The translations under genes were made by a program, and so were the position numbers. Positions 34,412-56,781 of a stretch of 64,000 nucleotides of DNA are shown here, piece by piece (within the stretch, counting starts at the first letter, position 1; every line of letters begins with the position of its first letter). The stretch comes from Candidatus Latescibacterota bacterium (GTDB taxonomy: Bacteria; Latescibacterota; UBA2968; GCA-2709665): contig OZ242358.1 in the NCBI GenBank assembly GCA_965208835.1, positions 1,472,001 through 1,536,000 of the forward strand. Reading direction: 5' to 3'. The notes beneath the pieces were generated by a model that was given only the letters and a program-made list of their open reading frames with translations, ran no database searches and was not told the DNA's origin.

Positions 34412-35485
34412 ATGTCGATTGCAGGACGTGTCAAAACGGCGAGAGACGAACTGGATGCCCACGTCAGGGAAACAGTTGACTGGCATTTCAGTCCGGACAC
34501 GGGGTGCCCGTTCTGGCTGGAATTCGCCGCAGGTCTGGATTTCGATCCGCGGCGGGAGATCGGCGGTTATGCGGACTTGAAGATCCTCGGTCATTTTCAG
34601 GACGACTGGCTGCGCGGCGGTCCGGTGCGCCGGTGGATTCCCGGGGGGAGCGCAGGGAAACGGACGTACGTCTTCGAAACCGGTGGATCAACAGGAGTGC
34701 CGAAGTATCGGATCAGCCAGGAAGACTTCCACGTCGACTACGAGATGTTCAGCAGGCACCTTTCGGACGAGACGTTTCCAAGGGGCGCCGACTGGCTGAT
34801 GCTGGGGCCCACGGGCCCGAGGCGGCTGCGGCTGGCGGTTGAATACCTCTGCCAGATTCGCGGCGGCATCTGTTTCCTTGTGGACCTGGACCCCAGATGG
34901 GTCAACAAGCTGATCGCGCGCGGCGCCCTACAGGAGCTGGATCTCTATAAGGCCCACGTGATCGATCAGGCGTTGACCATTCTGCGTGCGAACGACAATG
35001 TGAAGTGCATGTTTACGACGCCGAAGCTTCTGGAAGCGATCTGTGAAAAGATCTCATTGAAAAAGGCCGGCATTTCGGGGATATTTTGCGGGGGGACCGA
35101 GATGGATGCGCAGTTCAACCGTTTCGCCAGGGAGGAACTGATTCCCGGAATCGACTTCGTGCCGACGTATGGAAATACGTTGATGGGACTGGCCTGTTCC
35201 AAGCCCCTGGAACCTTCGGACAACTTCGCCATTACCTATTATCCGCCCCTCCCGCGTGCCGTGATCGAACTCGTGGACCCCGACGATCCTGACGTACCGG
35301 TGGAATACGGCGCCGTCGGGCGGGTGATGCTGACGACCCTCACCCGGGAGTTCTTCATGCCGCGGTTCCTGGAAAGGGACGAGGGCGAGCGGGCGGAACC
35401 GATCGAGGCATTTCCCTGGGACGGGGTGAGGAATCTGGGTCTGTTCTCGGAAATGCAGGAGTCGGTCGTGGTCGGCGTATATTAG
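34412..35485 (+). CDS. GriC/EhpF-like short adenylate-forming enzyme (aryl-carboxylate reductase component)
   Basis: WHFSPDTGCPFWL...LDFDP, VFETGGSTGVPK, GGTEM, YGNTL and ERD motifs; lacks the C-terminal domain of full CoA ligases. Confidence 0.7.
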   Translation: MSIAGRVKTARDELDAHVRETVDWHFSPDTGCPFWLEFAAGLDFDPRREIGGYADLKILGHFQDDWLRGGPVRRWIPGGSAGKRTYVFETGGSTGVPKYRISQEDFHVDYEMFSRHLSDETFPRGADWLMLGPTGPRRLRLAVEYLCQIRGGICFLVDLDPRWVNKLIARGALQELDLYKAHVIDQALTILRANDNVKCMFTTPKLLEAICEKISLKKAGISGIFCGGTEMDAQFNRFAREELIPGIDFVPTYGNTLMGLACSKPLEPSDNFAITYYPPLPRAVIELVDPDDPDVPVEYGAVGRVMLTTLTREFFMPRFLERDEGERAEPIEAFPWDGVRNLGLFSEMQESVVVGVY

Positions 35486-35496
35486 CGGGAAGGTAT

Positions 35497-36939
35497 ATGA
35501 TCCGGGAGGATCGCGTGACCCATATCCCGGTTTTACGTGCAGGGAATCCATACACGAGTCTGGACGTCCAGGAAGTTCCGCACGTTCAGACCGGAGAACC
35601 GCTGGTGCGGGTCAGCCAGGCGAATCCGGGTCTGATCGCGAAAGACCTCAACGCCGCGGACGCGAATAAGCGAGCTCTGGAAGCGCTGAGCGTTTCCGAT
35701 CTTGCAGCCATCACGCGAAGGGCAGGCCGGCTGTTCGCAGAGGCGGAGCTTCCGCTTGATGGCCTGTCGCAATCGCCAGGGGACTATGTCCGCCAGGTCT
35801 CGGGGACAACGGGAATTCCTGAAACCCTTTGCCGGGAGAATCTGGAAAAAATCCGGTTGGCCTGCAGCCAGATCGACGACGTGCTCGCCGGTCTGACGCG
35901 TGAGCTGGATCTGTCGGTGCTGGACAGGGGGTGGGCTTCGGAAAACGGCAGGCCGTTGAGCTATGTCTGCCAGACCGACGCGCTTGGCGCGGTATTGCCG
36001 AGCAATTCGCCGGGCGTGCATTCGCTCTGGGTCCCGGCAACGGCACTGAAGGTGCCTCTCGTGCTGAAACCCGGCAGGGAGGACCCGTGGACGCCGTACC
36101 GGATTGCACAGGCGTTTAACGCCGCGGGATGTCCGGGCGAAGCGTTTGGCATTTATCCCACAGGGCACGCGGGCGCGAACGAAATCCTCCTGCGTTGCGG
36201 GCGCTCTCTCTTGTTCGGAGGCGGCGCCACGGTCGCGCCGTGGCTGCACGATCCGCGGGTATCGATCCATGGTCCGGGCCGCAGCAAGGTGGTTCTGGGA
36301 GAAGACCTGGTCGACCGCTGGGAGGACTTCCTGGATGTGATCGTGGTTTCCATCGCGGCCAACGGAGGGCGTTCGTGCATCAATGCGTCCGGCGTCTGGA
36401 CGCCCGCGTACGGACGCGAGATTGCCGATGCGATTGCGCAGCGCCTCGCACAGATCGAGGCGCGGCCGCTGAGCGACCCGGAAGCCCGGATTGCCGCGTT
36501 TGCCAATCCGGCCGCGGCTACCGGGCTTTCCAATATCATCGACGTCCATCTGAAGCGCGGCGGCGCGGAGGACCTGACCGCGGGCCTGCGCGGGAGCCGG
36601 CTTGTCGAACTGGACGGCCTGACGTTCCTGAACGCGACCCTTGTATGGTGTGGCTCCCCCGAACACCCCCTGGCGAATACCGAATTCCTGTTCCCCTTCG
36701 CGAGCGTGGTCGAGGCGCCGCAGGCGGAGGTGGTCCAGGGGATCGGGCCCAGCCTGGTGGTCACGGTGTTGACAGAGGATGAAGACCTCGTCGGAGACTT
36801 GCTGAATTCACCCCACGTGGATCGACTGAACGCGGGGCCGATTCCCACGAACCGGATTTCATGGGACCAGCCGCACGAAGGCAATTTGTTCGATCACCTC
36901 TACCGTCAGCGGGCGTTTCAGTTCGCGCACGGCGCTTAG
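35497..36939 (+). CDS. Aldehyde dehydrogenase-fold protein (GriD/LuxC-like acyl reductase)
   Basis: LPSNSPGVHSLW, LKPG, HGPGRSK, NGGRSCINAS (catalytic Cys), EFLFP and PHEG motifs. Confidence 0.8.
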   Translation: MIREDRVTHIPVLRAGNPYTSLDVQEVPHVQTGEPLVRVSQANPGLIAKDLNAADANKRALEALSVSDLAAITRRAGRLFAEAELPLDGLSQSPGDYVRQVSGTTGIPETLCRENLEKIRLACSQIDDVLAGLTRELDLSVLDRGWASENGRPLSYVCQTDALGAVLPSNSPGVHSLWVPATALKVPLVLKPGREDPWTPYRIAQAFNAAGCPGEAFGIYPTGHAGANEILLRCGRSLLFGGGATVAPWLHDPRVSIHGPGRSKVVLGEDLVDRWEDFLDVIVVSIAANGGRSCINASGVWTPAYGREIADAIAQRLAQIEARPLSDPEARIAAFANPAAATGLSNIIDVHLKRGGAEDLTAGLRGSRLVELDGLTFLNATLVWCGSPEHPLANTEFLFPFASVVEAPQAEVVQGIGPSLVVTVLTEDEDLVGDLLNSPHVDRLNAGPIPTNRISWDQPHEGNLFDHLYRQRAFQFAHGA

Positions 36940-36949
36940 GGTTCCGTGA

Positions 36950-38065
36950 ATGGAGCCTTTCGACCACCATCCTTCGCCCCGGGTGATCTTCGGGGCGGGC
37001 ACGCTGGCGCGGCTCGCGGACCTGGCGGGTGGACTGGGAGGCGGGCGAATCCTGCTCGTGACCGATCCGGGCATCGTCAACGCCGGGATCGCTGACAGGG
37101 CGCTGTCCCTGCTGCGGGGAGCGGAACGAGATGTCTGTCTGTTCGACGGCGTGGACGAGAACCCGACGACGGCCCACGTGGACGCGGGGGTGGAGGCGGC
37201 TGCGGCGCACGGCGGGATCGGTCTCATCGTGGGCCTGGGCGGCGGCAGCGCAATGGATTGCGCCAAGGGGATCAATTTCATCCTCACCAACGGCGGACGG
37301 ATGGAGGCCTACTGTGGGATGGGCAGGGCGCGCCGGCCGATGCTGCCGTCGATAGGCGTTCCGACGACCGCGGGGACAGGCAGCGAAGCCCAGTCCTACG
37401 CGTTGATCTCAAGGCCGGATACGCACGAAAAGATGGCCTGCGGCGACCTCAAGGCGCGTTTTCGCGGCGTCATTCTGGATCCCGATCTCACCGCGAGCGC
37501 ACCGGGACATGTGGCCGCCGCGGCGGGGATCGACGCCATCGCCCATGCCGTGGAAAGCTGTGTGTGTACGCGTCGGAACCCGGTTTCGCGCATGTACGCG
37601 CTGGAGGCGTGGCGTCTGCTCGCATCGGGATTCGAAGAGGCGCTGGCGCCGGCGGCCGGCGGGGAAGCCAGGTCGGCCATGCTCCTGGGCGCGCATTTCG
37701 CTGGAGCGGCGATCGAGAATGCCATGCTGGGCGCCGCCCACGCCTGCGCCAACCCGCTTACGGCCCGTTACGGAATCCCACACGGCGTCGCGGTGGGCTT
37801 AATGCTTCCGTCGGTGATCCGGTTCAATGGAGAAACAGATGGCGCGCTCTACGGAGGCTTCGGGTTGACCGCGGGTGCGCTGGCGGAACGGATCGAAGGG
37901 TTCAGGCGGACGGCGGATCTGCCCGGCTGCCTCGGCGATCTCGGGGTTGAACGGGATCGGCTTCCGGAATTGGCGGCCGAGGCGGCGACCCAGTGGACCG
38001 GGACGTTCAATCCGCGGCCGGCCCGCGAAGCCGACTTTCTGGCGTTATATGAAGAGGCATATTGA
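36950..38065 (+). CDS. Iron-containing alcohol dehydrogenase
   Basis: GGGSAMDCAK, PTTAGTGSE, DAIAHAVE, HACA and PHG motifs. Confidence 0.92.
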   Translation: MEPFDHHPSPRVIFGAGTLARLADLAGGLGGGRILLVTDPGIVNAGIADRALSLLRGAERDVCLFDGVDENPTTAHVDAGVEAAAAHGGIGLIVGLGGGSAMDCAKGINFILTNGGRMEAYCGMGRARRPMLPSIGVPTTAGTGSEAQSYALISRPDTHEKMACGDLKARFRGVILDPDLTASAPGHVAAAAGIDAIAHAVESCVCTRRNPVSRMYALEAWRLLASGFEEALAPAAGGEARSAMLLGAHFAGAAIENAMLGAAHACANPLTARYGIPHGVAVGLMLPSVIRFNGETDGALYGGFGLTAGALAERIEGFRRTADLPGCLGDLGVERDRLPELAAEAATQWTGTFNPRPAREADFLALYEEAY

Positions 38066-39206
38066 GGTTCGCGCGAGGCAAAGAGCAGGGTGCATATGGA
38101 ACATTTTGCTCCCTTTGTGCATCTTGTACGTACCGGTTTCCGTCTGCGTCGCCGGGGAGACGTCATGGCCGCAGTTCAGAGGCGACGCGCAATCCACGGG
38201 ACACGCGCGGGATTCGCTGCCCGACAGCCTGGTTGTCCTGTGGGCTGCCCGGGTGCCGGAAGGCATCGAGTCCACCGCGGCGATCCGTTATGGAATGGTT
38301 TTCGTTGGCGGGCTGGACGGAAACCTCTATGCATTTGATTTTGTAACCGGGGCGTTGAAATGGAAGTATTCCGCCGGCGGAGAAATAAAGGCTTCTCCGC
38401 TGGTGGCGGGTGACCGGGTTTTCTTCGGAGACGGTAACGGCGGCTTTCACGCCGTGGACGCGTCAACCGGGAAGGGGTTGTGGACGTACCGGACCGAAGG
38501 GGAGATCATCTCTTCCGCCGCGTCGTACGAAGGCCGGGTGATCTTCGGGTCCTACGATCAGTTCCTCTACTGCCTCACGATGGAGGGCGGGAGCCTGGTG
38601 TGGAAGGTGGAGACGGAGGGATACGTTCATGGGTCCCCGGCCCTTTGGGGCGGACGCGTACTCGTCGCCGGTTGCGACGGTCTGCTGCGCATGGTGAACG
38701 CGGCTGCAGGAGACGAAGTCTCACGGGTGGAACTGTCCGACTACGTGGCGGCCAGTGTTGCCGTGCGCGGCGGACGGGCCTACGCGGGTACGTTCGGTAA
38801 CCAGGTCATGGGTCTGGACCTGTCGGCGGAGAAGGTCCTGTGGCGGTACGAGCACCCCAGCCGCAAGTTTCCATTTTACGCGTCCCCGGCGGTCACGGAA
38901 GAACACGTGATCGTCGCCGGGCGTGACAGGATGGTGCGAGCGCTTCGCCCCGGCAGCGGCGGTGTGTTGTGGATTCGTGCGTTTCGTTCCCGGCTGGACT
39001 CGTCGCCGGTGGTTGCGGGCGACCGGGTGTTCGTGGGCACGACCGGCGGGAGGATTCTGGCGCTGGATCTGAAGACGGGCGAACCGGGATGGGAATTCCC
39101 GACCGGTTCGGCGGTGCTGGCTTCGCCGAGCGTGGCCGGCGGCAGGCTCGTAATCGGAACGGCTGACGGGACTTTGTACTGTTTTGGCAGTGAGGCGGGA
39201 GAATGA
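38049..39206 (+). CDS. Secreted PQQ-like beta-propeller repeat protein
   Basis: Hydrophobic N-terminus, WPQFRG, and repeated SP...G.....D..TG...W units; overlaps the ADH stop. Confidence 0.85.
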   Translation: MKRHIEVRARQRAGCIWNILLPLCILYVPVSVCVAGETSWPQFRGDAQSTGHARDSLPDSLVVLWAARVPEGIESTAAIRYGMVFVGGLDGNLYAFDFVTGALKWKYSAGGEIKASPLVAGDRVFFGDGNGGFHAVDASTGKGLWTYRTEGEIISSAASYEGRVIFGSYDQFLYCLTMEGGSLVWKVETEGYVHGSPALWGGRVLVAGCDGLLRMVNAAAGDEVSRVELSDYVAASVAVRGGRAYAGTFGNQVMGLDLSAEKVLWRYEHPSRKFPFYASPAVTEEHVIVAGRDRMVRALRPGSGGVLWIRAFRSRLDSSPVVAGDRVFVGTTGGRILALDLKTGEPGWEFPTGSAVLASPSVAGGRLVIGTADGTLYCFGSEAGE

Positions 39207-40549
39207 GTACCCAGGTTCACATACCGGAACCCGCGACCTCCAGGAAAGCGTGGAAAGAAACGGCGGTCGGCAGCGTCTTCGTGTCCAACTACCCTCCGTA
39301 TTCGTTCTGGCGGGATGAGCACAATTCCCGCGTCGAGGCGATGCTGGAGGCTTCGGAACCTTCGGCGGGGGCGGTTCCGCTCGGGTTGTATCTTCATGTC
39401 CCGTTCTGCCGGAAACGCTGCAAGTTCTGTTATTTTCGCGTGTATACCGATCGCAACAGTTCCGAGATCCAGGTCTATCTGGATGCGCTGGCCAGGGAGG
39501 TGGAAAACTACGCCACGCTGCCCAGGATCGACGGACGCAGCCTGCAATTCGTCTACTTCGGCGGGGGGACGCCGTCGTATATCAGCGTGAAACACCTGGA
39601 GGCGCTGGTGGATCGGCTGAAGGCCGTGTTGCCGTGGGACGCCGCGGAGGAGGTCGCGTTCGAGTGCGAACCGGGCACGCTCACACAGCCGAAGGTAGCA
39701 GCCATTCGCGAAATCGGGGTCACGCGATTGAGCCTGGGCCTGGAGAATCTGAATGACGAAATCCTGAAGGAGAACGGCCGGGCGCACGTCGGCAAAGAGA
39801 TCTACCGGGCCATGGACTGGGTGAAGAAGCAGGCGTTCGAACAGGTGAACGTAGACCTGATTTCGGGGATGGTGGGCGAAACGTGGACGACGTGGAAGGA
39901 GACCGTTCAGGGGACGATCGATCTGGACCCCGACAGCGTGACGATCTATCAGATGGAACTGCCGTTCAATACGACGTATTCGAAGGCGCTTCTGGATGGT
40001 AACGGTGTGCCAGTTGCAGACTGGGAGACGAAGCGCGCGTGGCACGCCCATGCGATCGACGCGTTCGGCGAGGCCGGCTACGAGATCTCGAGCGCCTATA
40101 CGATGGTCAGGAAGGGTCGTCCGAAGCGGTTCGTCTACCGGGACGCGCTGTGGCGGAGCGCCGACCTCATCGGCGCCGGCGTCGCGTCGTTCTCGCACGT
40201 GGGCGGTATACACTTTCAGAATCACACACAGTGGGACTCCTACGTCGATGCCTGCATGCACGGGCGGCTGCCGTTGAACAGGTCTTTCGTTCCTACTGAC
40301 GAGGAACGCCTCGTGCGCGAGATGATCCTGCAACTCAAGCTGGGCAGGATCGAGACCGGTTATTTCAAGGACAGATTCAACGTGAATATCCTGGAGCGGT
40401 TTGGCGAGGCCTACGGAAGACTCAGGGATTTCGGCATGCTGGAATTCGATTCGCAGAGTATCACTCTGAGCCGGGATGGACTCTTGCGCGTCGATCAATT
40501 GCTCCCCGAATTTTACGACGAGAAATATCGCAATTCGCGCTATACATGA
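39203..40549 (+). CDS. HemN-like radical SAM enzyme
   Basis: LYLHVPFCRKRCKFC (CxxxCxxC), YFGGGTPS, RLSLG and VNVDLI motifs; ATGA-coupled to the upstream gene. Confidence 0.9.
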   Translation: MSTQVHIPEPATSRKAWKETAVGSVFVSNYPPYSFWRDEHNSRVEAMLEASEPSAGAVPLGLYLHVPFCRKRCKFCYFRVYTDRNSSEIQVYLDALAREVENYATLPRIDGRSLQFVYFGGGTPSYISVKHLEALVDRLKAVLPWDAAEEVAFECEPGTLTQPKVAAIREIGVTRLSLGLENLNDEILKENGRAHVGKEIYRAMDWVKKQAFEQVNVDLISGMVGETWTTWKETVQGTIDLDPDSVTIYQMELPFNTTYSKALLDGNGVPVADWETKRAWHAHAIDAFGEAGYEISSAYTMVRKGRPKRFVYRDALWRSADLIGAGVASFSHVGGIHFQNHTQWDSYVDACMHGRLPLNRSFVPTDEERLVREMILQLKLGRIETGYFKDRFNVNILERFGEAYGRLRDFGMLEFDSQSITLSRDGLLRVDQLLPEFYDEKYRNSRYT

Positions 40550-40734
40550 GGCATGCCGAATTTCACGCCTTTCCTGGACAGAAACCGACCTGGGACCGGA
40601 GTGGTTGGCGTTTCCTGGAGCGAGGGCATCCAGGTTATGGGTCTCCTGACAGCGGTTTAATGACGTCCAATGAACCATATAACGCGTGGTCATTGAGCTT
40701 GTCGAAATGCCCGCTATTCAAAAGCAATTCGATC

Positions 40735-40807
40735 CTTCGCCGGCCCTTCGACAAGCTCAGGGGACGGCTCGGCTTCTGCGACTCCTCCTTGTCAAGGGGG
40801 AGTGATT
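40735..40807 (-). repeat. Palindromic repeat family D with a nested CTTCGACAAGCTCAG hairpin
   Basis: Inverted match to 13981-14065; a second TGAGCTTGTCGAA lies at ~40694. Confidence 0.7.
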
Positions 40808-40921
40808 GGTCCATCAAGCCGGCGCGGGCGTTTCGTGCCACCCATTTGATTGCGGCTGAGCATAGCGAAGCCGCGCAAGGTACGCCATTACTGTAGTTTC
40901 ACTTTCTTGCGGAGTCAGTCT

Positions 40922-42136
40922 ATGAAATACAGGTTTTATTTGGTGTTCGCATTTGTGCTGTGCTTTTCTCCCGCTCACGCGGATTGGCCTCAATGGCTGG
41001 GCCCGAACCGAACGGGCATTTCGACCGAAACGGAATTCCTGAAGGTCTGGCCGAAGGACGGTCCTGCGGTTATGTGGAAGAGGAACCTCGGCAAGGGGTT
41101 TTCAGGGATCTCGGTGGCGGATGGTCGTGTGTTCACCATGTTTGCGGAGGGTGACGACGAGTTCGTCGTCTGTCTGAATGAGGAATCGGGAGACGAAATC
41201 TGGCGGTTCAGGACGGGAGGCATGTTCGAAGAATGGCAGGGGGGCGACGGACCCCGGTCGCAGCCGACGGTGGACGGAGAGCGGGTATACGTCCTCGGCG
41301 CTGAGGGTCGGCTGTACGCGCTGAAGGCGGCAAACGGCGATACGATCTGGACCGTGGACCTTGTCGACGGCCTGGGCGGCCGGTTTCCCAGGTTCGGGTT
41401 TTCGACTTCGCCGCTGGTGGAAGGCGACTTTCTGTTCCTGGAGGCGGCGACGCGTAATGGTACGTTTCTGGCGCTGCGCAGGAAAGACGGTAAAGTCGCC
41501 TGGGCTTCCCAGAACGACGTGGCTTCCTATTCCTCGCCCATCGCCCTGGATCTCGCCGGTGCGCGTCAGGTGGTCTATTTTTCCGGAGACGCCGTCGTCG
41601 GGCTTTCTCCGGTCGACGGCTCCCTGTTCTGGCGGTTCCCCTGGAAGACGTCGTACGACCTGAATATTGCAACGCCGATCTTCGTACCGCCGGACCAGAT
41701 CTTCATTTCCTCGGGTTATGATCACGGCGCGGCTTTGCTGCGGATCGAGTCAGACGGCGACGGGTTCTCGGCGACCCGGGTCTGGCAGAGCCGGCGGATG
41801 AAGAACCATTTCGGCACGTCCGTGTTGGTCGGGGACTATATCTACGGATTCGATAACGCCATCCTGAAGTGTATCGAAGCACGGACCGGAAAAGAGCAGT
41901 GGAAACATCGCGGGTACGGCAAGGGGGCTTTGATCTACGCCGACGGGCACCTCGTCCTGTTGAGTGACAACGGGAGACTGGCCCTGGCGCAGGCAACGCC
42001 CGACGGATTCAGGGAAAAGGCCGGCGTGCAGGTGCTCGACGGCCGCAGCTGGACGATGCCGACCCTGGCCAACGGCCGCGTGTTCGTCAGGGATATGCGG
42101 AAAATCGTCTGTCTGGATCTCCGGGCCGGTGGTTAG
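40922..42136 (+). CDS. Secreted PQQ-like beta-propeller repeat protein
   Basis: Signal peptide ending AHA, WPQWLGPNRTG, YSSP and Trp-docking repeats. Confidence 0.88.
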   Translation: MKYRFYLVFAFVLCFSPAHADWPQWLGPNRTGISTETEFLKVWPKDGPAVMWKRNLGKGFSGISVADGRVFTMFAEGDDEFVVCLNEESGDEIWRFRTGGMFEEWQGGDGPRSQPTVDGERVYVLGAEGRLYALKAANGDTIWTVDLVDGLGGRFPRFGFSTSPLVEGDFLFLEAATRNGTFLALRRKDGKVAWASQNDVASYSSPIALDLAGARQVVYFSGDAVVGLSPVDGSLFWRFPWKTSYDLNIATPIFVPPDQIFISSGYDHGAALLRIESDGDGFSATRVWQSRRMKNHFGTSVLVGDYIYGFDNAILKCIEARTGKEQWKHRGYGKGALIYADGHLVLLSDNGRLALAQATPDGFREKAGVQVLDGRSWTMPTLANGRVFVRDMRKIVCLDLRAGG

Positions 42137-42155
42137 CGTCTAACGTTGGGACTTC

Positions 42156-42860
42156 GAGGAGAGAGGAAAGAGGAGTGAAGAGCGAGGAGAGAGGAAAGAG
42201 GAGTGAGGAGTGAGTAACGACAAAAAGCAGATCGGGAATCGCGAAAGGAAAGAGGAGTGAAGAGCGAGGAGAGAGGAAAGAGGAGTGAGGAGTGAGTAAC
42301 GACAAAAAGCAGATCGGGAATCGCGAAAGGAAAGAGGAGTGAAGAGCGAGGAGAGAGGAAAGAGGAGTGAGGAGTGAGTAACGACAAAAAGCAGATCGGG
42401 AATCGCGAAAGGAAAGAGGAGTGAAGAGCGAGGAGAGAGAAAAGAGGAGCGAGGAGAGAGTAACGGCAAAAAGCAGATCGGGAATCGCGAAAGGAAACAG
42501 GAGTGAAGAGCGAGGAGAGAGAAAAGAGGAGTGAGGAGAGAGTATCGACAAAAAGCAGATCGGGAATCGCGAAAGGAAAGAGGAGTGAAGAGCGAGGAGA
42601 GAGAAAAGAGGAGCGAGGAGAGAGAAAAGAGGAGCGAGGAGAGAGAAAAGAGGAGCGAGGAGAGAGTAACGGCAAAAAGCAGATCGGGAATCGCGAAAGG
42701 AAACAAGAGTGAAGAGCGAGGAGAGAGAAAAGAGGAGTGAGGAGAGTATCGACAAAAAGCAGATCGGGAAACGCGAAAGGAAAGTGGAGTGAGAGGCCTT
42801 TGACTCGTTTTCTCTCTTTTCTCACTTCTCTCCGCTCTCTCCTCGACTCGTTTCCCTTGT
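42156..42860 (+). repeat. Purine-rich tandem array, 7 units of ~82 bp built from heptamers, followed by a pyrimidine-rich arm
   Basis: CAAAAAGCAGATCGGGAA recurs at 42221, 42303, 42385, 42467, 42549, 42673 and 42753; filler GAGGAGT/GAAGAGC/GAGGAGA/GAGGAAA; pyrimidine arm 42804-42860. Confidence 0.95.
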
Positions 42861-48535: not shown

Positions 48536-48579
48536 TTCTTAATTCCTAATTCTTAATTCTCAATTCTTAATTGCTTACT

Positions 48580-48660: not shown

Positions 48661-48663
48661 TTG

Positions 48664-48857
48664 ACCTTGATTCGTATGTTTTTCGGTGACGTTAATTCGA
48701 ATAAGTTCGAGTTAATAAAGGCGATTAGACGGCGGATTCACAGGATACACCAGGTCACGGGACGTGCACTGAATGAACGTCCTTCTGAACGACATTTTCG
48801 CCCCGTTTCAGGTGTTCTCGTAGCGTCGCCGCGTTGCTGTTTTTTTCGAATTGGGGT
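48664..48857 (+). mobile_element. MITE-like repeat family B, copy 2
   Basis: ACCTTGATTCG...CGAATTGGGGT; aligns with 10158-10349. Confidence 0.8.
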
Positions 48858-48885
48858 TAATTCTTAATTCGTAATTGTTATTTCC

Positions 48886-50239: not shown

Positions 50240-50740
50240 ATGCCGGCCGAACAGGCATCGACGCCAGGGCTGACGTGGCTGATATTCGCCGCCATGACGG
50301 TAGGATCGTGGGGACTGTACGGGATTTTTCTGCATACCGGGCAGATTGCAATGGCCGATCCCGTGAACGGACGGTACAAAGCGTTTCTGCTCGTGGGCGT
50401 GGCATATCTGTTGACCGCCGTAATCGGTTCAATGGTCGTTCTGTGGTTGAACGGCTCGGACTGGTCGTTTCCCGCGCGCGGGTTCACCTGGTCTCTGCTC
50501 GCCGGTACCGTGGGTGCGATCGGCGCATTCGGCGTCCTGCTCGCGTTCGGCGCCCGTGGCACGCCTGCCGTGGTGATGTCGATCGTATTCGCGGGCGCTC
50601 CCATTGTAAACGCCGTAGTGTCGATGGCGGTACACCCGCCCGCCGGTGGATGGGGCGCGTTGAACTGGCAGTTCGTGCTGGGTATCGTACTCGCGGCGAT
50701 GGGGGGGTGCCTCGTAACGCTCTTCAAGCCGGCGTCGTGA
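50240..50740 (+). CDS. Small polytopic membrane protein (DMT/EamA-like half-transporter)
   Basis: Five hydrophobic segments; SWGLYG and VFAGAPIVNA motifs; AAGGAGGAG RBS. Confidence 0.75.
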   Translation: MPAEQASTPGLTWLIFAAMTVGSWGLYGIFLHTGQIAMADPVNGRYKAFLLVGVAYLLTAVIGSMVVLWLNGSDWSFPARGFTWSLLAGTVGAIGAFGVLLAFGARGTPAVVMSIVFAGAPIVNAVVSMAVHPPAGGWGALNWQFVLGIVLAAMGGCLVTLFKPAS

Positions 50741-50968: not shown

Positions 50969-51415
50969 ATGCCGTGTGAATTCAATACCACGCGACGAGT
51001 GGAATTTTCGGATACGGATATGGCCGGGATCGTGCACTTTTCCCGGTTTTTCGTTTTCATGGAAGCGGCGGAGCACGCGTTCCTGCGTTCGCTCGGCACC
51101 AGCGTGGCTGGCACATTGGAAGGACGAAGGGTCGGGTGGCCCCGGGTGGGCGCGTCGTGCGACTATCTCCATCCCGCCCGGTTCGAAGACATGCTGGACG
51201 TGCATTTGAAGGTGATACGAAAAGGGACCAGTTCGATGACATACGGGATTGAATTCCGGCGCGGCGACGTCCTTATTGCCCGGGGCCGGTTGAGTACGGT
51301 GTTCTGTGAGTGCGTCCCGGGGCGTCCGTTCCGCTCCACACCCATCCCGGATTCTGTCGCGGATCAGATTGAGGAATCCCCTGAACAGGAGGGGGAGGAT
51401 GACGCTGAGGGCTGA
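50969..51415 (+). CDS. Hotdog-fold acyl-CoA thioesterase (4HBT/YbgC family)
   Basis: RVEFSDTDMAGIVHFSRFFVFMEAAE motif. Confidence 0.9.
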   Translation: MPCEFNTTRRVEFSDTDMAGIVHFSRFFVFMEAAEHAFLRSLGTSVAGTLEGRRVGWPRVGASCDYLHPARFEDMLDVHLKVIRKGTSSMTYGIEFRRGDVLIARGRLSTVFCECVPGRPFRSTPIPDSVADQIEESPEQEGEDDAEG

Positions 51416-52058
51416 GCGTGTCTCGAAGCGATACGGGGATGTGACGGTTCTCAGGGACGTCTCGATTGAAGTTTCGCGAGGCCAGTCCCTTGCGGTCGTC
51501 GGGCCCTCAGGATCGGGAAAGAGTACGCTGCTGCACGTATTCGGTACCCTGGACAGACCGACCTCCGGCCGTGTGACCGTCGACGGCCGGGACCCCTACG
51601 TCCTTCCTGAGAAGGACCTGGCGCGCTTCCGAAACCGCGTGATCGGATTCGTCTTCCAGGACCACCATCTGCTGCCCCAGTATTCGGTGCTCGAAAACGT
51701 GATGATGCCGACGCTGGCGTTCCGAGATGGAGGGGCGGACGCCGCTGAACGGGCGCGGGACCTGATCGAACGTGTCGGGCTCGGGCATCGAACCAACCAC
51801 CGCCCTTCCGCCCTTTCGGGCGGTGAACGCCAGCGCGTCGCGGTGGCTCGGGCGCTGGTCAACCGGCCGGCGCTGCTGCTTTGCGACGAGCCGACGGGCA
51901 GCCTGGACCGGGCCCGGGCCGATGAAGTCGGCGATCTGCTTTTTGAGCTGCACGCGGAACAGGAGACCATCCTCATCGGCGTCACGCACAGCCTGGAGCT
52001 GGCCGCGAGATTTGAGCGCCGGATGGCCTTGCAGGAGGGAACGTGCGTCGAAGCCTGA
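51399..52058 (+). CDS. ABC transporter ATP-binding protein (LolD/MacB-like)
   Basis: [27 protein letters not shown] and VTH motifs. Confidence 0.95.
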
Positions 52059-55000
52059 CGTTTTACTGGCGCATCCACCTGCTGGTGATGCTCGCGGTTG
52101 CCGCGGCGGCCGCCGTCCTCACCGGCGCCCTGCTGGTGGGCGATTCGGTGCGGGAAAGCCTGCGTGACCTGACCGTCGACCGGCTTGGCGACATTGACCA
52201 TGCGCTTGTTGCGGACCGCTTCTTCCGTGCGGGTCTGGCCCGGGATATCGAGGCGGCGGGGGAGGATGTGACGGTTGTTCCGGCGGTGACGCTCAGGGGC
52301 ACGGCAGTGCATGGTAGTGCAGGTACGCGGGCGACCCGCGTACGGATTCTGGGCGTCGATTCGCGATTCGGTGATCTCTTCCAGGCGTCGTTTCCCGACC
52401 TCGACCGCCGCGGGGTGTACACGCCGCTTGTCGTAAACGAGTCCCTTGGACGGGAACTGGATGCCAGGGTTGGCGACGCGATTCTGCTGTCCTTTGAGCT
52501 TCCCGACAATATTCATCGGGAGTCGCTCTTCGGCCGTGACGAGGTCTCGGAGTCGATATTGACCGTGCGTGTGCGGATTGCGGCCATGCTGCCCGACCGC
52601 GGGGTGGGTCGCTTCGGTTTGCGCTCGAGCCAGGATGTGCCGCTTAATGCGTTTGTTTCCCTGATCGAATTGCAGAACGCGATGGGACTTCCGGATCGGG
52701 TCAACACGCTTCTGGCGACGGTTCGGCCCGGCGCCGCGGCCGGATTGAGGTCCGCGCTTTCCCGCGCGGTCGTGCTGGACGACCTGGGACTGTCGATACG
52801 CGAAGGAAGGGGCTTTTTTTTTGTCGAGAGCACACAGTTCGTCCTCAAACCCCACCTGTCCCGGACGATTGTGGGCCTGGCGGAAGAAATGGGGATGCCG
52901 CGGCTTCCGATCCTGACCTACCTGGCGAACGCCATCGAAGCGGGGGACCGGACGTTGCCGTATTCAACGGTCGCGGCAATTGACCTCGGGAACTTTGGAC
53001 CCGCGCAGCTCCTGAACGGAAATCCGGCGCCGGCGCCCGGCGACGGGGAAATTCTGCTGAACGCCTGGGCGGCCGCGGACCTGAACGCCAGGACCGGCGA
53101 TCCGGTCACCATCGAATATCTCGAAGTCGGGCCTGGAGACGCGCTGATTCCAAGGCGCGAGACATTCAAACTTGCAGGCGTGGTCGCGATGACGGGATTG
53201 GGCGCCGATTCGCTGCTGGCGCCCAGGTTTCCGGGATTGCAGGATGCAGACGATATGCACGCGTGGGACCCTCCGTTTCCCATCGATCTCCAGCGCATCA
53301 GGCCCAAAGACGAAGCCTACTGGGACGCCCACCGGGCGGCGCCCAAAGCCCTGGTATCCGCCTCCACCGGCCAACGACTGTGGCGAAACCGGTTCGGCAA
53401 TCTGACGTCCGTCAGGATCGGGCCCGCGCACGGCATGGACGTCACGAGTTCGGCCCGGCGATTTCGCTCCGGAATGCGGGGCGCGCTTTCGCCCGAGTCC
53501 ACCGGCCTGGTATTCCGGCCGGTAAGGGAAGAGGGGATGGCCGCTTCGTCAGGCTCGACCGATTTCCGATGGCTCTTCGGCGGGTTCAGTCTGTTTCTGA
53601 TCGTCTCCGCCGCGTTGCTTGTGGGCCTTCTCTTCCTGCTCGGGGTGGATCAGCGCGCCGGAGAGGTGGGCGTGCTGACGGCGTCGGGATTCACCGCCAG
53701 GGCCATCCGCGGCCGGTTTATGGGCGAGGCGATCTGGCTGGCGGGTCTTGGCGGCCTGGTCGGGATTGCAGGAGGACTGGCGTACGGTTGGGTCATGCTG
53801 GCCGGTCTGCGTACGTGGTGGGTCCCGGCGGTTGGAACCACGGAACTCTATCTGCACGTGAACGGATCCAGCCTGGTGGCGGCATTCGCGGTCTCACAGG
53901 TTGTGGCACTGCTCGCAATCTGGATGACGGTCCGGCGATTGTCCCGCATGCCCGCGCGTGCCCTGCTGTCCGGCAGCGTTTGTGCGGCAACAGGCGATCA
54001 TGGAGGGCGGGTCCGGGTCTATGTCCTCGGAAGCCTGGCATTGGCCACGGCCTGTCTCGCGGCGGCCGCACAGGCGGACCGGCAAGCGGCGGCCGCGCTG
54101 TTTTTCGGGTGCGGGGCATTCCTTCTCACATCGGGTCTGGGCCTGCTTTCGATGTGGCTTCGCGGCCGGGGAAATGCGGCGGCGAGGGGCATCTCGAGCA
54201 TGGGCGTGCGGAACAGCGCGCGAAATCCCGGCCGGAGCATGCTGTGTGCGGGGTTGATCGCGAGCGCCTGTTTCGTGGTTGTGGCGGTTGGCGCCCATCG
54301 CCGCGCAGACGTCAACGGGGATGCGCTGAACAGCCGGACGTCGGGCGGCGGCGGGTTCCAGCTCGTTGTCGAAACGGATGCGCCGCTATATCACGATCTC
54401 AATTCGGAGGACGGCCGGTTCGAGCTGGGGTTTAACCCGGAGGATGCGCCAATTCTGGACAGGGCGAGGTTCATGCCGTTCCGTGTCCTGCCGGGCGAGG
54501 ACGTGAGTTGTCTGAATCTGTACAAGCCCAGCCATCCCCGGGTCCTGGGCGTGCCTGAAGCCCTGATGAGACGGGGCGGTTTCTCGTTTGACCGGCTGTT
54601 GGAGGAAGCGGATGAGCCATGGACTCTATTGGCGGGGGGCGCGGAACAGGACGTGATTCCCGCGTTCGGAGATGTAAACTCGGTGACCTGGATCCTGCAC
54701 AGGAAGCTGGGCGACGAAATCCCGATGCGATCCCATACAGGCGAGGTCGTCCGGCTGAGGCTTGTGGGTCTGCTGAAGAACAGTATCTTCCAGAGTGAAT
54801 TGCTGGTGTCCGAGGCGAATTTCACCGCCCATTTCCCCGATCGGAGCGGCTATGGCTATTTTCTGGTCGAGACCGACCGACCCCGCGAATTGGGTGCGCT
54901 CCTGGAGCGGAGGTTGCAGGACGCCGGTCCGGATGCGACGACGACGGCGGCCAGGCTGGCTGGCTTCCGAGCGGTGGAGAACACGTATCTGTCCACGTTT

Positions 55001-55363
55001 CAGACACTCGGCGGGTTGGGGGTGCTTCTGGGTACGTTCGGTCTTGGGATCGTGATGGTACGCAACGTCGTCGAACGCCGGGGCGAACTCGCGGCGCTTC
55101 GGGCGCTCGGGTTTCGCAGGTCGTCTCTATCGGGACTCCTGTTCATGGAAAACGGGTTCCTGATGGCAACGGGCATGGCCATCGGGGCAGCGGCCGCGAT
55201 CGTGACGACAGTGCCCCTCGCTTCGGGCGGCGAATTGCCCTGGCTTTCTCTTCTGGCAACGCTGGGTCTTATACTCATTACGGGCATGGCCGCGGGCGCC
55301 GCGGGGATTTTTGCCGCGCTGAGGACCCCGCTGTTGCCGGCATTGAAGCGGGACGGCGCGTAG
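52043..55363 (+). CDS. Large duplicated FtsX/MacB-type ABC permease
   Basis: Two TM clusters with R.GE...L.A.GF motifs and two large periplasmic domains; 1106 aa. Confidence 0.85.
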   Translation: MRRSLTFYWRIHLLVMLAVAAAAAVLTGALLVGDSVRESLRDLTVDRLGDIDHALVADRFFRAGLARDIEAAGEDVTVVPAVTLRGTAVHGSAGTRATRVRILGVDSRFGDLFQASFPDLDRRGVYTPLVVNESLGRELDARVGDAILLSFELPDNIHRESLFGRDEVSESILTVRVRIAAMLPDRGVGRFGLRSSQDVPLNAFVSLIELQNAMGLPDRVNTLLATVRPGAAAGLRSALSRAVVLDDLGLSIREGRGFFFVESTQFVLKPHLSRTIVGLAEEMGMPRLPILTYLANAIEAGDRTLPYSTVAAIDLGNFGPAQLLNGNPAPAPGDGEILLNAWAAADLNARTGDPVTIEYLEVGPGDALIPRRETFKLAGVVAMTGLGADSLLAPRFPGLQDADDMHAWDPPFPIDLQRIRPKDEAYWDAHRAAPKALVSASTGQRLWRNRFGNLTSVRIGPAHGMDVTSSARRFRSGMRGALSPESTGLVFRPVREEGMAASSGSTDFRWLFGGFSLFLIVSAALLVGLLFLLGVDQRAGEVGVLTASGFTARAIRGRFMGEAIWLAGLGGLVGIAGGLAYGWVMLAGLRTWWVPAVGTTELYLHVNGSSLVAAFAVSQVVALLAIWMTVRRLSRMPARALLSGSVCAATGDHGGRVRVYVLGSLALATACLAAAAQADRQAAAALFFGCGAFLLTSGLGLLSMWLRGRGNAAARGISSMGVRNSARNPGRSMLCAGLIASACFVVVAVGAHRRADVNGDALNSRTSGGGGFQLVVETDAPLYHDLNSEDGRFELGFNPEDAPILDRARFMPFRVLPGEDVSCLNLYKPSHPRVLGVPEALMRRGGFSFDRLLEEADEPWTLLAGGAEQDVIPAFGDVNSVTWILHRKLGDEIPMRSHTGEVVRLRLVGLLKNSIFQSELLVSEANFTAHFPDRSGYGYFLVETDRPRELGALLERRLQDAGPDATTTAARLAGFRAVENTYLSTFQTLGGLGVLLGTFGLGIVMVRNVVERRGELAALRALGFRRSSLSGLLFMENGFLMATGMAIGAAAAIVTTVPLASGGELPWLSLLATLGLILITGMAAGAAGIFAALRTPLLPALKRDGA

Positions 55364-55482
55364 CGGCCGATTCGAGAGTGCGGCGACAATAGGTTTTCAG
55401 ATTTGGAATCGCGCGTCGTATATTCAATTGAGGATACGCAGATCCGGCGTTCTCCGTCTTTCCAAGGCGAAAGGAGCCTGGA

Positions 55483-56781
55483 ATGAATCGAATGATTTTA
55501 TCCCTGACCGCATTCTGTCTGGTTGTCGCATCCGGACCGGCTGCGTCGAACTGGCCTCACTGGCGTGGACCGAACCGGAACGGGCTCGTCGACGGGAGTC
55601 CACCCGTACAGTGGAGCGAACAGAAGAATATCCGATGGAAGGCGCCCATTCCCGGCCTGGGTCACGCAACGCCGATTGTCTGGGGCGATCGTATCTTCGT
55701 GCAGACCGCGGTGAGGACTGACAAAGTCGTGGCGGATAACGGCAGGGGAAGGCGCCGTCCCCCGCCCAATCTGCTTCAGTACAAGGTCCTGGCGCTGGAC
55801 CGGCGGACCGGGGAAACCGTCTGGGAAAAGACGGTTCGGGAGGCCCGGCCTCACGAGGGGATGCACCGGACGGCGTCGTTTGCGTCCCCATCGGGCATTA
55901 CGGACGGAGAAAATCTCTTTGCGTATTTTGGATCACAAGGGCTCTATTGCCTCGATATGGACGGCAATCTGAAGTGGGAGAAAGACCTGGGCAAATACTG
56001 GAGCAGAGCCGCGTTCGGCGAGGGGGCTTCGCCAACGGTCCACGGCAACACCCTGGTGATCAACTGGGACCACGAAGGGGATTCGTTCATAGTCGCGCTG
56101 GACAAGAAAACGGGAAGGGAACTCTGGCGGAACGGCCGGGACGAGGTCACGTCGTGGTCCTCACCCGTCACGGTGGAATACGGCGGCCGGACCCAGGTGA
56201 TCGTCAGCGCTTCGCGCCGCACACGGAGCTACGACCTGGAGACCGGCGCGCTGATCTGGGAATGCGGCGGGCTGGGGACGAACGTGATCCCCACGCCGCT
56301 ACATGCGGACGGGGTGGTGTACGTGGCCAGCGGTCACAGGAGTCCCGCCATGCAGGCCATCTCGCTGGACCGCGCAAAGGGGGACATTTCGGGTTCGGAC
56401 TCGGTGTTGTGGTCCATCACCCGGGATACGCCCTATGTGTCTTCACCCCTGCTACACGCCGGCCGGTTGTTCATGCTGAAAGGCAGGGGCGCGTTCCTGT
56501 CCTGCTATAACGCGGGTACCGGCAAGCCGGTTTTCGGACCCAAACGCCTGGACGGGACGGGCTTCATCTACGCGTCGCTGGTCGGCGCGGACGACCGCGT
56601 GTATATTACCGATCTCGAAGGCAGGACGCTCGTCGTCAGGAACAGCCCTGAGTTCGAAATCCTTGCGACGAATACCCTGGATGAAGGGAGCGGGGCGTCT
56701 CCGGTGGTTGTCGGAGACGCGCTCTATCTGAGGGGACGCAGCCACCTCTACTGTATCGCTGAAGACCTGACGAACCGTTAG
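55483..56781 (+). CDS. Secreted PQQ-like beta-propeller repeat protein
   Basis: Signal peptide; NWPHWRGPNRNG, WSSP and PYVSSP motifs. Confidence 0.88.
   Translation: MNRMILSLTAFCLVVASGPAASNWPHWRGPNRNGLVDGSPPVQWSEQKNIRWKAPIPGLGHATPIVWGDRIFVQTAVRTDKVVADNGRGRRRPPPNLLQYKVLALDRRTGETVWEKTVREARPHEGMHRTASFASPSGITDGENLFAYFGSQGLYCLDMDGNLKWEKDLGKYWSRAAFGEGASPTVHGNTLVINWDHEGDSFIVALDKKTGRELWRNGRDEVTSWSSPVTVEYGGRTQVIVSASRRTRSYDLETGALIWECGGLGTNVIPTPLHADGVVYVASGHRSPAMQAISLDRAKGDISGSDSVLWSITRDTPYVSSPLLHAGRLFMLKGRGAFLSCYNAGTGKPVFGPKRLDGTGFIYASLVGADDRVYITDLEGRTLVVRNSPEFEILATNTLDEGSGASPVVVGDALYLRGRSHLYCIAEDLTNR

Follow-up and report, generated by a model that had tools for sequence, protein, structure and literature searches.

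What does a conserved run of bacterial genes do when it brings acid-activating and acid-reducing enzymes, a halogenase-type flavoprotein, a radical S-adenosylmethionine (SAM) enzyme and several transporters together with exported beta-propellers, and contains no recognisable biosynthetic core? The question is raised by a gene cluster on the plus strand of a Candidatus Latescibacterota genome (GenBank assembly GCA_965208835.1; genome G000, 5.18 Mb in a single contig). The cluster is located in a stretch of 64,000 nucleotides (contig OZ242358.1, positions 1,472,001 to 1,536,000, or C1:1472001-1536000 of G000), which is called the window here and to which the coordinates below refer. A sequence-only reading had placed a single cluster of 15 genes at 34412-56781. 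Open reading frames (ORFs), Pfam and NCBIfam matches confirm all 15 of these genes, on the plus strand and in the places given for them, and the family assignments are borne out by Pfam, NCBIfam and the PDB. The gene content therefore stands, while the 3' end does not: a TAXI-family TRAP solute-binding protein and its permease (57011-59939) extend the co-directional block, the strand switches only after 59939, and the boundary has been moved there to include this importer. At the other end, 34412 is a sound boundary because the upstream PcRGLX-like gene and the two GFO/IDH/MocA genes (29515-34409) are kept only within the genus among ten relatives. From 34412 to 59939 the genes form a single conserved system and not a mosaic. 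In the scheme that we prefer, with a probability of about 0.4, it would couple a pathway to the cell envelope, a tailored aromatic acid being passed to the periplasmic face with the propellers as partners.

The unity of the block is seen in its conservation. In the 40 kb around the first gene, which encodes an EhpF-like adenylating enzyme, the window proteins were searched in ten relatives from two families of the order. The EhpF-like gene, its aldehyde dehydrogenase (ALDH)-like partner, the iron-containing alcohol dehydrogenase (Fe-ADH), propeller 1, the HemN-like enzyme and the PaaK-like ligase are found in the same order in all ten. The flavoprotein, the GT4 glycosyltransferase, the small membrane protein orf166, the ATPase and the permease are present in nine, the exception being G022, the thioesterase and the TonB receptor in eight each, and the TRAP pair in six. 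In three genomes (G022, G024 and G034) the EhpF-like gene and the permease are 1.0-2.3 Mb apart, about 1 Mb in G022, and both are retained. A sample of 151 genomes of the phylum was then searched for the EhpF-like gene (E <= 1e-30) and the permease (E <= 1e-40). The former is present in 83 genomes, all of which come from three families within a single class; the other eleven families, with 38 genomes, lack it altogether. The permease is present in 88, namely 82 of the 83 EhpF-positive genomes and, with 35-39% identity, 6 of the 36 genomes from other classes; all 32 genomes that belong to the EhpF-positive class but are themselves EhpF-negative lack it. The first and last modules of the cluster have therefore been gained and lost together.

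The association extends beyond the phylum. Eighty loci anchored on the flavoprotein were grouped by record title and synteny, three with Gemmatimonadota titles and one titled 'uncultured' being counted with the Latescibacterota; the titles name Latescibacterota, Poribacteria, KSB1, Acidobacteriota (Vicinamibacteria and Thermoanaerobaculia), Planctomycetota and a few others. Within 10 kb on either side of the flavoprotein, and counting matches of at least 40% identity, the HemN-like enzyme is found in 53 of these loci, propeller 1 in 45, the TAXI binding protein in 42, the Fe-ADH in 37, the GT4 protein in 29, the thioesterase in 27, the TonB receptor in 25 and the permease in 22. These counts are minimum values, since many loci run into a contig edge and the distance between the EhpF-like gene and the flavoprotein usually exceeds 10 kb. 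Both the EhpF-like gene and the permease occur away from the flavoprotein locus in three Planctomycetota and two Poribacteria genomes. Of the 61 Poribacteria sampled, 57 contain the EhpF-like gene, with 69-77% identity. Broad vertical retention, dispersal without loss and strong sequence constraint are unlike the patchy occurrence of a typical secondary-metabolite cluster. The claim of a single cluster, for which co-conservation had been named as the check, is thus upheld by the synteny in ten of ten relatives, by the joint presence in 82 of 83 genomes against none of 32, and by the joint retention in other phyla.

A second association links the cluster to the number of propellers in the genome. 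Among the 41 nearest relatives, the 37 that have the EhpF-like gene contain 12-38 PQQ_2 matches, while the four that do not contain 1, 3, 4 and 1. In the 151-genome sample, where the numbers are first-look candidate counts, the median number of PQQ_2 candidates is 36 in EhpF-positive genomes (range 20-68, n=83), 14 in EhpF-negative genomes of the same class (range 2-38, n=32) and 11.5 in genomes of the other classes (range 0-48, n=36). The same difference is seen within four genera, where each EhpF-negative genome is below each positive one: 8 against 20 and 22 in genus g8, 7 against 27 and 32 in g10, 16 against 45 and 48 in g15, and 12-25 against 26-42 in g16. Two of the EhpF-negative genomes in these contrasts are large (5.7 and 6.0 Mb). 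The correlation between cluster and propeller number that had been suggested as a check is therefore found within the class and the four genera; in other classes some EhpF-negative genomes are rich in propellers.

The three propellers of the cluster itself are exported proteins. Propeller 1 (38049-39206), an eight-blade-type PQQ_2/PQQ_3 propeller and a core member of the cluster, has a signal-peptide-like amino-terminus and matches PQQ_2 and Pfam Beta-prop_ACSF4 at 189.9 bits (cut-off 133); its position is syntenic in all ten relatives. Many of its polar residues are conserved across phyla in 50 orthologues, as would be expected of a specific site more than of a mere scaffold. Propeller 2 (40922-42136; PQQ_2, 146.3 bits) has a cleavable signal peptide and is accessory, being found at 40% identity or more in 26 of the 80 loci. 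Propeller 3 (55483-56781; PQQ_2, 107.8 bits), also with a signal peptide, is accessory and lineage-specific, with homologues in seven of the ten relatives and in eight loci. Three propellers in 22 kb, set against about 20 propeller proteins in 5.18 Mb, is far above chance. All three resemble BamB (YfgL) and the PQQ-dependent alcohol dehydrogenases in their PQQ_2-type repeats and predicted export to the periplasm. Their scores against the BamB model are 164.3, 68.7 and 39.9, below its cut-off of 285.2, and the best score against the PQQ dehydrogenase models (TIGR03075, TIGR03074) is 84.9 against 480.05. Their mature length of about 345 residues is also too small for quinoproteins. A search of the window genome gave no PqqC, although the control genomes gave no match either. 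The suggestion that the product is a cofactor of the PQQ-like propellers is not supported, the propellers being of the generic PQQ_2/BamB type and not PQQ dehydrogenases. Two further propeller observations may be recorded. Orthologues of two propellers that precede the EhpF-like gene in sister genera (one of 730 aa with 53% identity, and its 506-aa neighbour) are located at G000:C1:1065030-1068673, about 440 kb from the cluster, and a KSB1 locus (L075:5907-8306) encodes, inside the cluster, an exported protein of 800 aa in which a PQQ_2 propeller is joined to an esterase domain (PF00756), with a weak enterochelin-esterase amino-terminal match.

The genes are closely packed, as had been described. 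They overlap by 4-17 nucleotides at five junctions (Fe-ADH with propeller 1, propeller 1 with the HemN-like gene, the TonB receptor with the ligase, the thioesterase with the ATPase, and the ATPase with the permease), and are separated by 9-11 nucleotides at three junctions and by 1 nucleotide at another; the three large gaps all contain repeats (42156-42783, 47976-48845 and 56853-56996). The description of the cluster as core-less is also accurate, in that polyketide synthase, nonribosomal peptide synthetase (NRPS), terpene cyclase, phz and pqq families have no match in Pfam or NCBIfam among the scanned plus-strand ORFs. A 116-aa ORF at 40546-40896 is kept in only two of the ten relatives, so that no precursor peptide is evident. 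Across the whole window no Rfam family reaches its gathering score, and hence there is no riboswitch or other RNA clue to the ligand. In a promoter and terminator scan, terminator-like sites are not enriched between 40000 and 58000 (21 against 17.0 +/- 4.3), and operon breaks cannot be called from them.

The cluster begins with a putative acid reductase. EhpF and EhpG are known from the D-alanylgriseoluteic acid (phenazine) pathway of Pantoea agglomerans, GriC and GriD from Streptomyces griseus. The first gene (34412-35485) encodes a truncated ANL-type adenylating enzyme of 357 aa, which has EhpF (PDB entries 3l2k and 3hgu) as its only solved relative; residues 15-344 align to residues 21-352 of EhpF (330 residues, E 2.5e-41), and the ANL P-loop is present as TGGSTGVPK. 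Its partner (35497-36939, 480 aa) starts 11 nucleotides downstream and belongs to the ALDH superfamily (Pfam Aldedh, 48.3 bits; ALDH structures matched at E 4e-8), with a cysteine, C294 in the sequence GGRSC, that is invariant across 17 orthologues. Homology to EhpF over the whole length and an adjacent ALDH partner with its cysteine are both as in reductases of the EhpF/EhpG (GriC/GriD) type, and the label 'GriC/GriD-like' was right in kind, EhpF being the closest relative of known structure. A fatty-acid reductase of the LuxE/LuxC kind was considered and rejected, since no Pfam LuxE or LuxC match is obtained even at E 10 and the solved relative is EhpF. The third gene (36950-38065) encodes an iron-containing alcohol dehydrogenase (Pfam Fe-ADH, 146.6 bits; ADH_Fe_C, 106.9 bits) that is below all NCBIfam equivalog cut-offs. 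From these families, conversion of an aromatic carboxylate to the aldehyde by the EhpF/EhpG-type pair is expected, followed by reduction of the aldehyde to the alcohol by the Fe-ADH.

The two named pairs share with ours the combination of an ANL enzyme of about 360 aa, lacking the carboxy-terminal domain, with an adjoining ALDH-superfamily protein carrying the conserved cysteine. Our cluster differs from them in having no phenazine or aminohydroxybenzoate genes nearby, in the far higher conservation of its EhpF-like protein (about 74% identity between phyla), and in the ties of the pair to a halogenase, a radical SAM enzyme, a GT4 protein, a type VII ABC transporter and exported propellers. 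Among the near relatives, 37 of 41 have a match to the EhpF-like protein, and 36 full-length matches are 76-95% identical to it. More than 8000 matches are found in the database, the best 120 of which are 73-89% identical. The identity of 73-77% among Latescibacterota, Poribacteria, KSB1, Calditrichia and Acidobacteria records is unusually high for a tailoring enzyme.

The flavoprotein (46308-47570, 420 aa) is a firmly assigned member of the flavin-dependent halogenase family, judged by its sequence matches and motifs. Its best PDB matches include 8zop (E 4.5e-66), CndH (3e1t), PltA, Mpy16, CmlS, Bmp2 and RadH, the solved halogenases spanning E 4.5e-66 to 1e-36; the 11 best (E <=1e-26) are all named halogenases except 3nix, an unassigned flavoprotein, and ChlB4, whose name is not telling. 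Ten solved proteins, eight of them named halogenases, score 226.7-129.7 bits, against 69.8 bits for geranylgeranyl reductase (E 1.9e-18). The sequences GGGPAG at residue 12, IGES at 44, K73 and WFWYIP at 218 are invariant in 15 diverse sequences, and K73 aligns to the lysine of RKYG in 8zop; a GxGxxG sequence, a WxWxIP sequence and a conserved lysine are what we take to be the motifs of flavin-dependent halogenases. The NCBIfam models CmlS (207.6), GG-red-SF (141.7) and QhpG (140.7) are each matched below their cut-offs. Readings as a geranylgeranyl reductase, a UbiH-type hydroxylase or a QhpG/LodB-type maturase were rejected, their scores being far weaker than those of the halogenases. With the solved halogenases CndH, PltA, Mpy16, Bmp2, CmlS and 8zop, the protein shares the nucleotide-binding motif, the lysine, the glutamate and WxWxIP; it differs from them in having no carrier protein, NRPS or polyketide synthase nearby and, at 420 aa, in lacking the carboxy-terminal domain of CmlS. 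No relevant paper was found in the literature linked to 8zop.

The remaining tailoring enzymes belong to recognisable families and are below the cut-offs of the named members. The radical SAM protein (39203-40549; Radical_SAM, 75.8 bits) has CxxxCxxC at residues 69-76 and GGGTP, the second-SAM motif, at 120. In the PDB it matches HemN (1olt, E 4.6e-30) and the methyltransferase NocN (E 5e-23), while its scores for hemN (178 against 324.95), ChuW/HutW (176 against 400), HemW (160.8 against 205.4) and STM4012 (172 against 380) place it in the HemN-like superfamily, class C type, and in no named family; it probably catalyses a C-methylation. The ligase (45021-46298; AMP-binding_C_2) matches PaaK (4r1l) at E 1.6e-58, and its scores for the PaaK equivalog (202.6 against 646.3) and for a haloarchaeal model (233.7 against 700) assign it to the PaaK family of aryl/acyl-CoA ligases and not to PaaK itself. 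It is found in 51 of the 80 loci, and in none of the eight from Planctomycetota or the ten from Acidobacteriota. The GT4 protein (48886-50178; Glycos_transf_1, 100.2 bits) has the EX7E motif at residues 337-345 and is under all NCBIfam cut-offs. The YbgC-like thioesterase of the 4HBT fold (50969-51415, with an inferred start; 4HBT, 47 bits; TIGR00051, 55.3 bits against 68.7) has an amino-terminus without a signal peptide. In another family of Latescibacterota, a TehB/TPMT-like SAM methyltransferase and a HAD hydrolase are located between the GT4 gene and orf166 (L039:15603-16202 and L036:16537-17424); the former may be an O-methyltransferase that acts on the product.

A clue to the substrate is provided by the Planctomycetota. 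Directly upstream of the flavoprotein, a gene for a 180-aa protein is found in six of their eight loci, one of the two others being cut at the flavoprotein, and in none of the other 72. The protein has no Pfam match. Its model (mean pLDDT, a predicted confidence measure, 75.8, from a three-sequence alignment) has a chorismate-lyase/UTRA fold, matching the DUF98 protein 2nwi at E 5.7e-7 and the entries for E. coli chorismate lyase (UbiC) at about 1e-3; with hhalign the match to UbiC is weak, with a probability of 4.9%. In Planctomycetales strain 10988, a chorismate-lyase-like gene, baaA, adjoins a halogenase-like gene, baaB, on one strand, and the pair has been proposed as the source of 3,5-dibromo-p-anisic acid (10.1101/723874); as presented in the part of that source drawn on here, the proposal names the two genes only and has no mutant behind it. 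Six of the eight Planctomycetota loci of our flavoprotein family have the same arrangement of a lyase-like gene directly upstream of a halogenase-like flavoprotein, whereas in the window the PaaK-family ligase occupies the place of the lyase gene. The lyase-fold gene and the likeness to baaAB therefore indicate 4-hydroxybenzoate as the halogenase substrate in the Planctomycetota variant, and in general the substrate is probably an aromatic acid.

The window genome would have to obtain such an acid in another way. A chorismate lyase was not found in it with Pfam Chor_lyase (PF04345), for which the E. coli control was positive, nor was a match found with a profile of the 180-aa family, in a search without a positive control. 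Import or salvage is plausible here, because a TonB receptor, a TAXI-TRAP importer and a PaaK-family ligase are present and no chorismate lyase was found. Caution comes from the ten Acidobacteriota loci, which have neither ligase nor lyase although some have the thioesterase. Of the idea that an aromatic acid is imported, tailored and exported, the aromatic acid is thus probable, from the EhpF relative and the lyase-fold gene, and its import plausible, while its tailoring and export are predicted from the gene families.

The envelope parts of the cluster are of three kinds. At the outer membrane, the TonB-dependent receptor (42907-45024) has plug and barrel domains and passes the siderophore-receptor subfamily model TIGR01783 (251.4 bits against a cut-off of 223.5); of 18 Latescibacterota-type loci, 17 have it in this position, as do 6 of 10 from Acidobacteriota, and the 37 Poribacteria and 8 Planctomycetota loci are all without it. 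At the inner membrane, the TAXI-family binding protein (57011-58027; NMT1_3, 207.8 bits), of which a homologue follows the flavoprotein in 32 of the 37 Poribacteria loci, is succeeded by a fused TRAP permease of the DctM type (58029-59939; 257.4 bits), the last gene of the co-directional block. The protein of orf166 (50240-50740, 166 aa) is a small polytopic membrane protein of half the size of a DMT transporter, with six hydrophobic stretches, of which three overlap, giving about 4-5 transmembrane segments. It has no Pfam match, its neighbours in the Atlas have been named automatically as 'DMT superfamily permease', which is a lead only, and it is 69-100% identical in nine of the ten relatives.

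The third part consists of an ATPase and a very large permease, which on domain matches and modelling form a type VII ABC transporter. The ATPase (51399-52058; ABC_tran, 123.4 bits) has the Walker A and LSGG motifs and is LolD/YbbA-like (LolD, 257.4; YbbA, 200.1), with DevA also among its NCBIfam matches; in two other genomes it is in one frame with the permease, as a fusion. The permease (52043-55363, 1106 aa) contains two FtsX domains and MacB_PCD, with about ten transmembrane segments and two large periplasmic domains (about residues 34-516 and 752-987). The model of the first (pLDDT 83.3) best matches the periplasmic domains of LolE, LolC, MacB and YbbAP (E 1e-9 to 1e-6), with about 215 residues aligned to LolE (5udf, E 1e-9). 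Orthology to LolCDE is not indicated, the LolD score of 257.4 being under the cut-off of 307.75 and the lolCE score of 21.7 under that of 362.45. The four type VII ABC transporters of E. coli all act at the periplasmic face with a partner, namely LolA, TolC/MacA, EnvC or TesA (PMC12646458). With LolCDE-LolA, MacAB-TolC, FtsEX-EnvC and YbbAP-TesA our transporter shares an FtsX-type permease with a Porter/Sabre-like periplasmic domain, and with YbbP the single chain with duplicated FtsX, next to an ATPase that is LolD/YbbA-like. It differs from LolCDE, MacAB, FtsEX and YbbAP in the length of the permease and of its first periplasmic domain (483 aa), and in that the cluster encodes no homologue of LolA, of a membrane fusion protein, of EnvC or of TesA. 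The propellers, which are co-inherited with the transporter, are the candidate partners; such a partnership would be unprecedented. A predicted complex of permease residues 34-516 with mature propeller 1 scored 0.15, with a mark at 0.32, and weighs neither way on binding. Among homologues, no propeller fusion of the Rosetta-stone kind was found, the long frames at EhpF-like and permease genes elsewhere being overlapping frames or ATPase-permease fusions.

These parts can be arranged into a scheme, of which the co-inheritance and the family assignments have been described above and the chemistry, the order of steps and the partner binding are deduced from the families. Among small aromatic carboxylic acids, one of the 4-hydroxybenzoate type is the most likely substrate; it would enter through the TonB receptor and the TAXI-TRAP importer and be activated by the PaaK-family ligase; in the Planctomycetota it would be made from chorismate instead. 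The flavin-dependent halogenase would then halogenate the ring, and the HemN-like enzyme would modify it, probably by C-methylation. With ATP and NAD(P)H, the EhpF/EhpG-type pair would convert the carboxylate to the aldehyde, from which the Fe-ADH would form a benzylic alcohol, to be glycosylated by the GT4 enzyme. The DMT-like protein and the type VII ABC machine may hand over the product on the periplasmic side, with the exported PQQ_2 propellers, propeller 1 above all, as periplasmic partners that would bind or convert it. A more specific form of the scheme can be envisaged, which we regard as quite unlikely: the product would be a halogenated, methylated glycoside of the hydroxybenzyl type, handed over by the YbbAP-like machine and serving the propellers as ligand, prosthetic group or recyclable redox substrate, the spent form returning through the TonB and TRAP or SSF importers and being re-reduced by the EhpF/EhpG-type pair and the Fe-ADH. 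Bacteria would then have their own version of the aryl-alcohol redox cycle of fungi.

Several points weigh against the coupled pathway-and-envelope scheme. On the side of the chemistry, the cluster contains no flavin reductase gene, a genome-wide search for one not having been made, and encodes no carrier protein, while the closest solved halogenases include some that act on carrier-bound substrates. A simple sequence of ligase, halogenase and thioesterase cannot be general, since the ligase is missing from the Planctomycetota and Acidobacteriota loci and the thioesterase is present in some of them. The connection to baaAB is one of gene-pair likeness. SSF, MFS and TRAP importers are also present in loci with the chorismate-lyase-like gene, so that import may serve something other than precursor supply. 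One Planctomycetota locus (L097:1481-20899) has, between the HemN-like gene and the permease, genes for a GCV_H-like protein, a 4Fe-4S protein, a second radical SAM enzyme, a squalene-hopene-cyclase-like protein, a fusion of DUF116 with a polyprenyl synthase, and a prenyltransferase-like protein; the presence of terpenoid genes within this operon would suit a product that is lipidic or prenylated. On the side of the propellers, the repeats are generic PQQ_2/PQQ_3 repeats without a cofactor signature, and four EhpF-negative genomes are nevertheless rich in propellers (G041 with 48 candidates, G065 with 47, G044 and G114 with 38 each), G041 having a distant homologue of the permease. The propeller counts also include those of the cluster itself, 7 of the 32 matches in the window genome, and related genomes are not independent of each other.

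The alternative that survives best, though we consider it unlikely, is that of a plain secreted natural product, in which a halogenated aromatic compound, an allelochemical like 3,5-dibromo-p-anisic acid or the brominated metabolites of sponges, is exported by the ABC transporter and the propellers, TonB receptor and TRAP importer are incidental. The firm assignment of the halogenase family suits it, as do the baaAB proposal, which is for a secreted dibrominated benzoate (10.1101/723874), and a preprint in which clusters of this kind are regarded as natural-product biosynthetic gene clusters (10.64898/2026.08.03.742642). Incidental propellers are hard to reconcile with the location of propeller 1 between genes for cytoplasmic enzymes, with overlapping stop and start codons, in ten of ten relatives and in 45 of 80 loci. 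The system is also near-universal in the Poribacteria (57 of 61), complete when dispersed and 70-77% identical between phyla, and a type VII ABC transporter acts at the periplasmic face with partners and does not pump from the cytoplasm (PMC12646458).

Poorer odds are given to a shuttle that is secreted and recaptured, either a metallophore or a redox mediator: a phenolic glycoside or alcohol would be released, bind metal or be oxidised outside, be imported again by the TonB receptor and the TRAP or SSF importers, and be regenerated by the reductase and dehydrogenase. Parts for export and import do belong to one conserved set, the TonB receptor is above the siderophore-receptor cut-off, importers recur (NMT1 in 42 of 80 loci, SSF in 18 of 85 sequences), and the KSB1 propeller-esterase fusion has its weak enterochelin-esterase match. 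There is a fungal precedent, in which aryl aldehydes are reduced inside the cell and the alcohols oxidised outside by aryl-alcohol oxidase, one such oxidase preferring chlorinated anisyl alcohols (PMC8140971). Set against this, neither an NRPS or NRPS-independent siderophore synthetase nor a catechol- or hydroxamate-forming enzyme is recognised in the cluster by Pfam or NCBIfam, no Poribacteria locus (0 of 37) and no Planctomycetota locus (0 of 8) has the TonB receptor, and redox activity of the propellers is an assumption.

An envelope glycolipid is a highly doubtful reading. A fatty or isoprenoid acid would be reduced, glycosylated and extracted by a Lol/Dev-like type VII ABC transporter for the outer membrane, the flavoprotein and the radical SAM enzyme modifying the lipid. 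It draws on LolE and LolC as the best structural matches of the permease domain, on DevA and LolD among the matches of the ATPase, on the terpenoid genes inside the L097 operon, on matches to the glycolipid exporter cassette BrtI given in the preprint (10.64898/2026.08.03.742642), and on the high conservation, which suits an envelope component. However, the only solved relative of the adenylase uses an aromatic acid, the flavoprotein belongs to the halogenases and not to the reductases and has a chorismate-lyase-fold neighbour in the Planctomycetota, and Pfam detects no lipid-synthesis genes in the window cluster. Finally, a chance juxtaposition of two or three unrelated operons, which the repeat-filled gaps at 42136-42907 and 47570-48886 and the lineage-dependent accessory genes might suggest, is extremely improbable, being contradicted by the order-wide synteny, by the distribution of the permease (82 of 83 against 0 of 32) and by the joint retention in other phyla.

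Clusters of this kind have been noticed in sponge metagenomes. Loureiro et al. 2026 define 'Halo_AMP' as an orphan pseudoclass of biosynthetic gene clusters containing a flavin-dependent halogenase together with an AMP-binding enzyme, often accompanied by PQQ-like domains and by radical SAM, glycosyltransferase, thioesterase, TonB and ABC genes; Latescibacterota account for 9% of the families, Poribacteria for 8% and Acidobacteriota for 16%, and no family matched MIBiG (10.64898/2026.08.03.742642). The window cluster has both a halogenase-family flavoprotein and AMP-binding enzymes, and is likely to be among these families. The earlier verdict that it could not be assigned to a characterised pathway needs amending: the pair of halogenase and lyase genes matches the proposed baaAB locus, and clusters with this composition are listed, as orphans, in the preprint. 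The focus of the preprint is on brominated peptidic alkaloids and a P450-bearing acidobacterial family, and the part of it drawn on here does not describe the acid reductase, the type VII ABC transporter or the tie to propellers and assigns no product (10.64898/2026.08.03.742642). Literature searches for EhpF/GriC with halogenase, or GriD/EhpG with PQQ-like proteins, returned nothing on this cluster. New here are the link through the chorismate-lyase-fold gene and baaAB to a substrate of the 4-hydroxybenzoate type, with a complementary variant of ligase plus uptake in the window genome, the predicted type VII ABC fold of the permease, and the joint loss, within genera, of the cluster and most PQQ_2 propellers.

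In the Poribacteria, where 57 of 61 genomes have it, and in one class of Latescibacterota the cluster comes near to being a core trait, and it is also found in Acidobacteriota, KSB1 and Planctomycetota. It may be a source of halogenated aromatics that is widespread among microbes, sponge symbionts included; it may also offer a first way into the function of the exported PQQ-like propellers, a very large family, and may add a new kind of periplasmic partner to the type VII ABC transporters. If the propellers are indeed clients of the product, a function would follow for the 'PQQ-like' propellers of Latescibacterota, Poribacteria, Planctomycetota and Acidobacteriota. The lyase-fold variant of the Planctomycetota names a concrete trial substrate, 4-hydroxybenzoate.

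Among the remaining features of the block, a purine-rich tandem array (42156-42783) lies between propeller 2 and the TonB receptor; as detected by Tandem Repeats Finder it consists of 5.6 copies of an 82-nucleotide unit with 97% matches and a GAGGAGA sub-repeat, and it belongs to repeat family D1. Between the flavoprotein and the GT4 gene, an insertion (47976-48845; repeat families D2, D3 and I2) contains a gene for a four-helix-bundle protein of the 23S rRNA IVP family (48050-48535; PF05635, 94.6 bits) and is flanked by 159-nucleotide direct repeats. It occupies the site at which other lineages have an SSF symporter or a further (fourth) propeller. The SSF gene is present at this position in 18 of 85 sequences compared (the 80 loci, four joined relatives and the window), and the window genome has no orthologue of it, the best match being 27% identical. 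Of the accessory genes that interrupt the cluster in other loci, most are mobile or have no relation to it (UvrD-TPR, IS605 OrfB, DUF4143 and AAA genes). An intergenic element of about 160 nucleotides is present in three copies that are 80-85% alike (10175-10338, 48682-48845 and, inverted, 56853-56996) and looks like a REP/MITE-type repeat marking gaps in the cluster. Outside the block, a low-GC stretch (14416-22083, with 49% GC at 20001-22000) is bracketed by 100-nucleotide direct repeats (14416-14515 and 20292-20391) and also by short repeats with a 25-nucleotide period (15054-15123 and 20479-20548), and may be a mobile or foreign insert.

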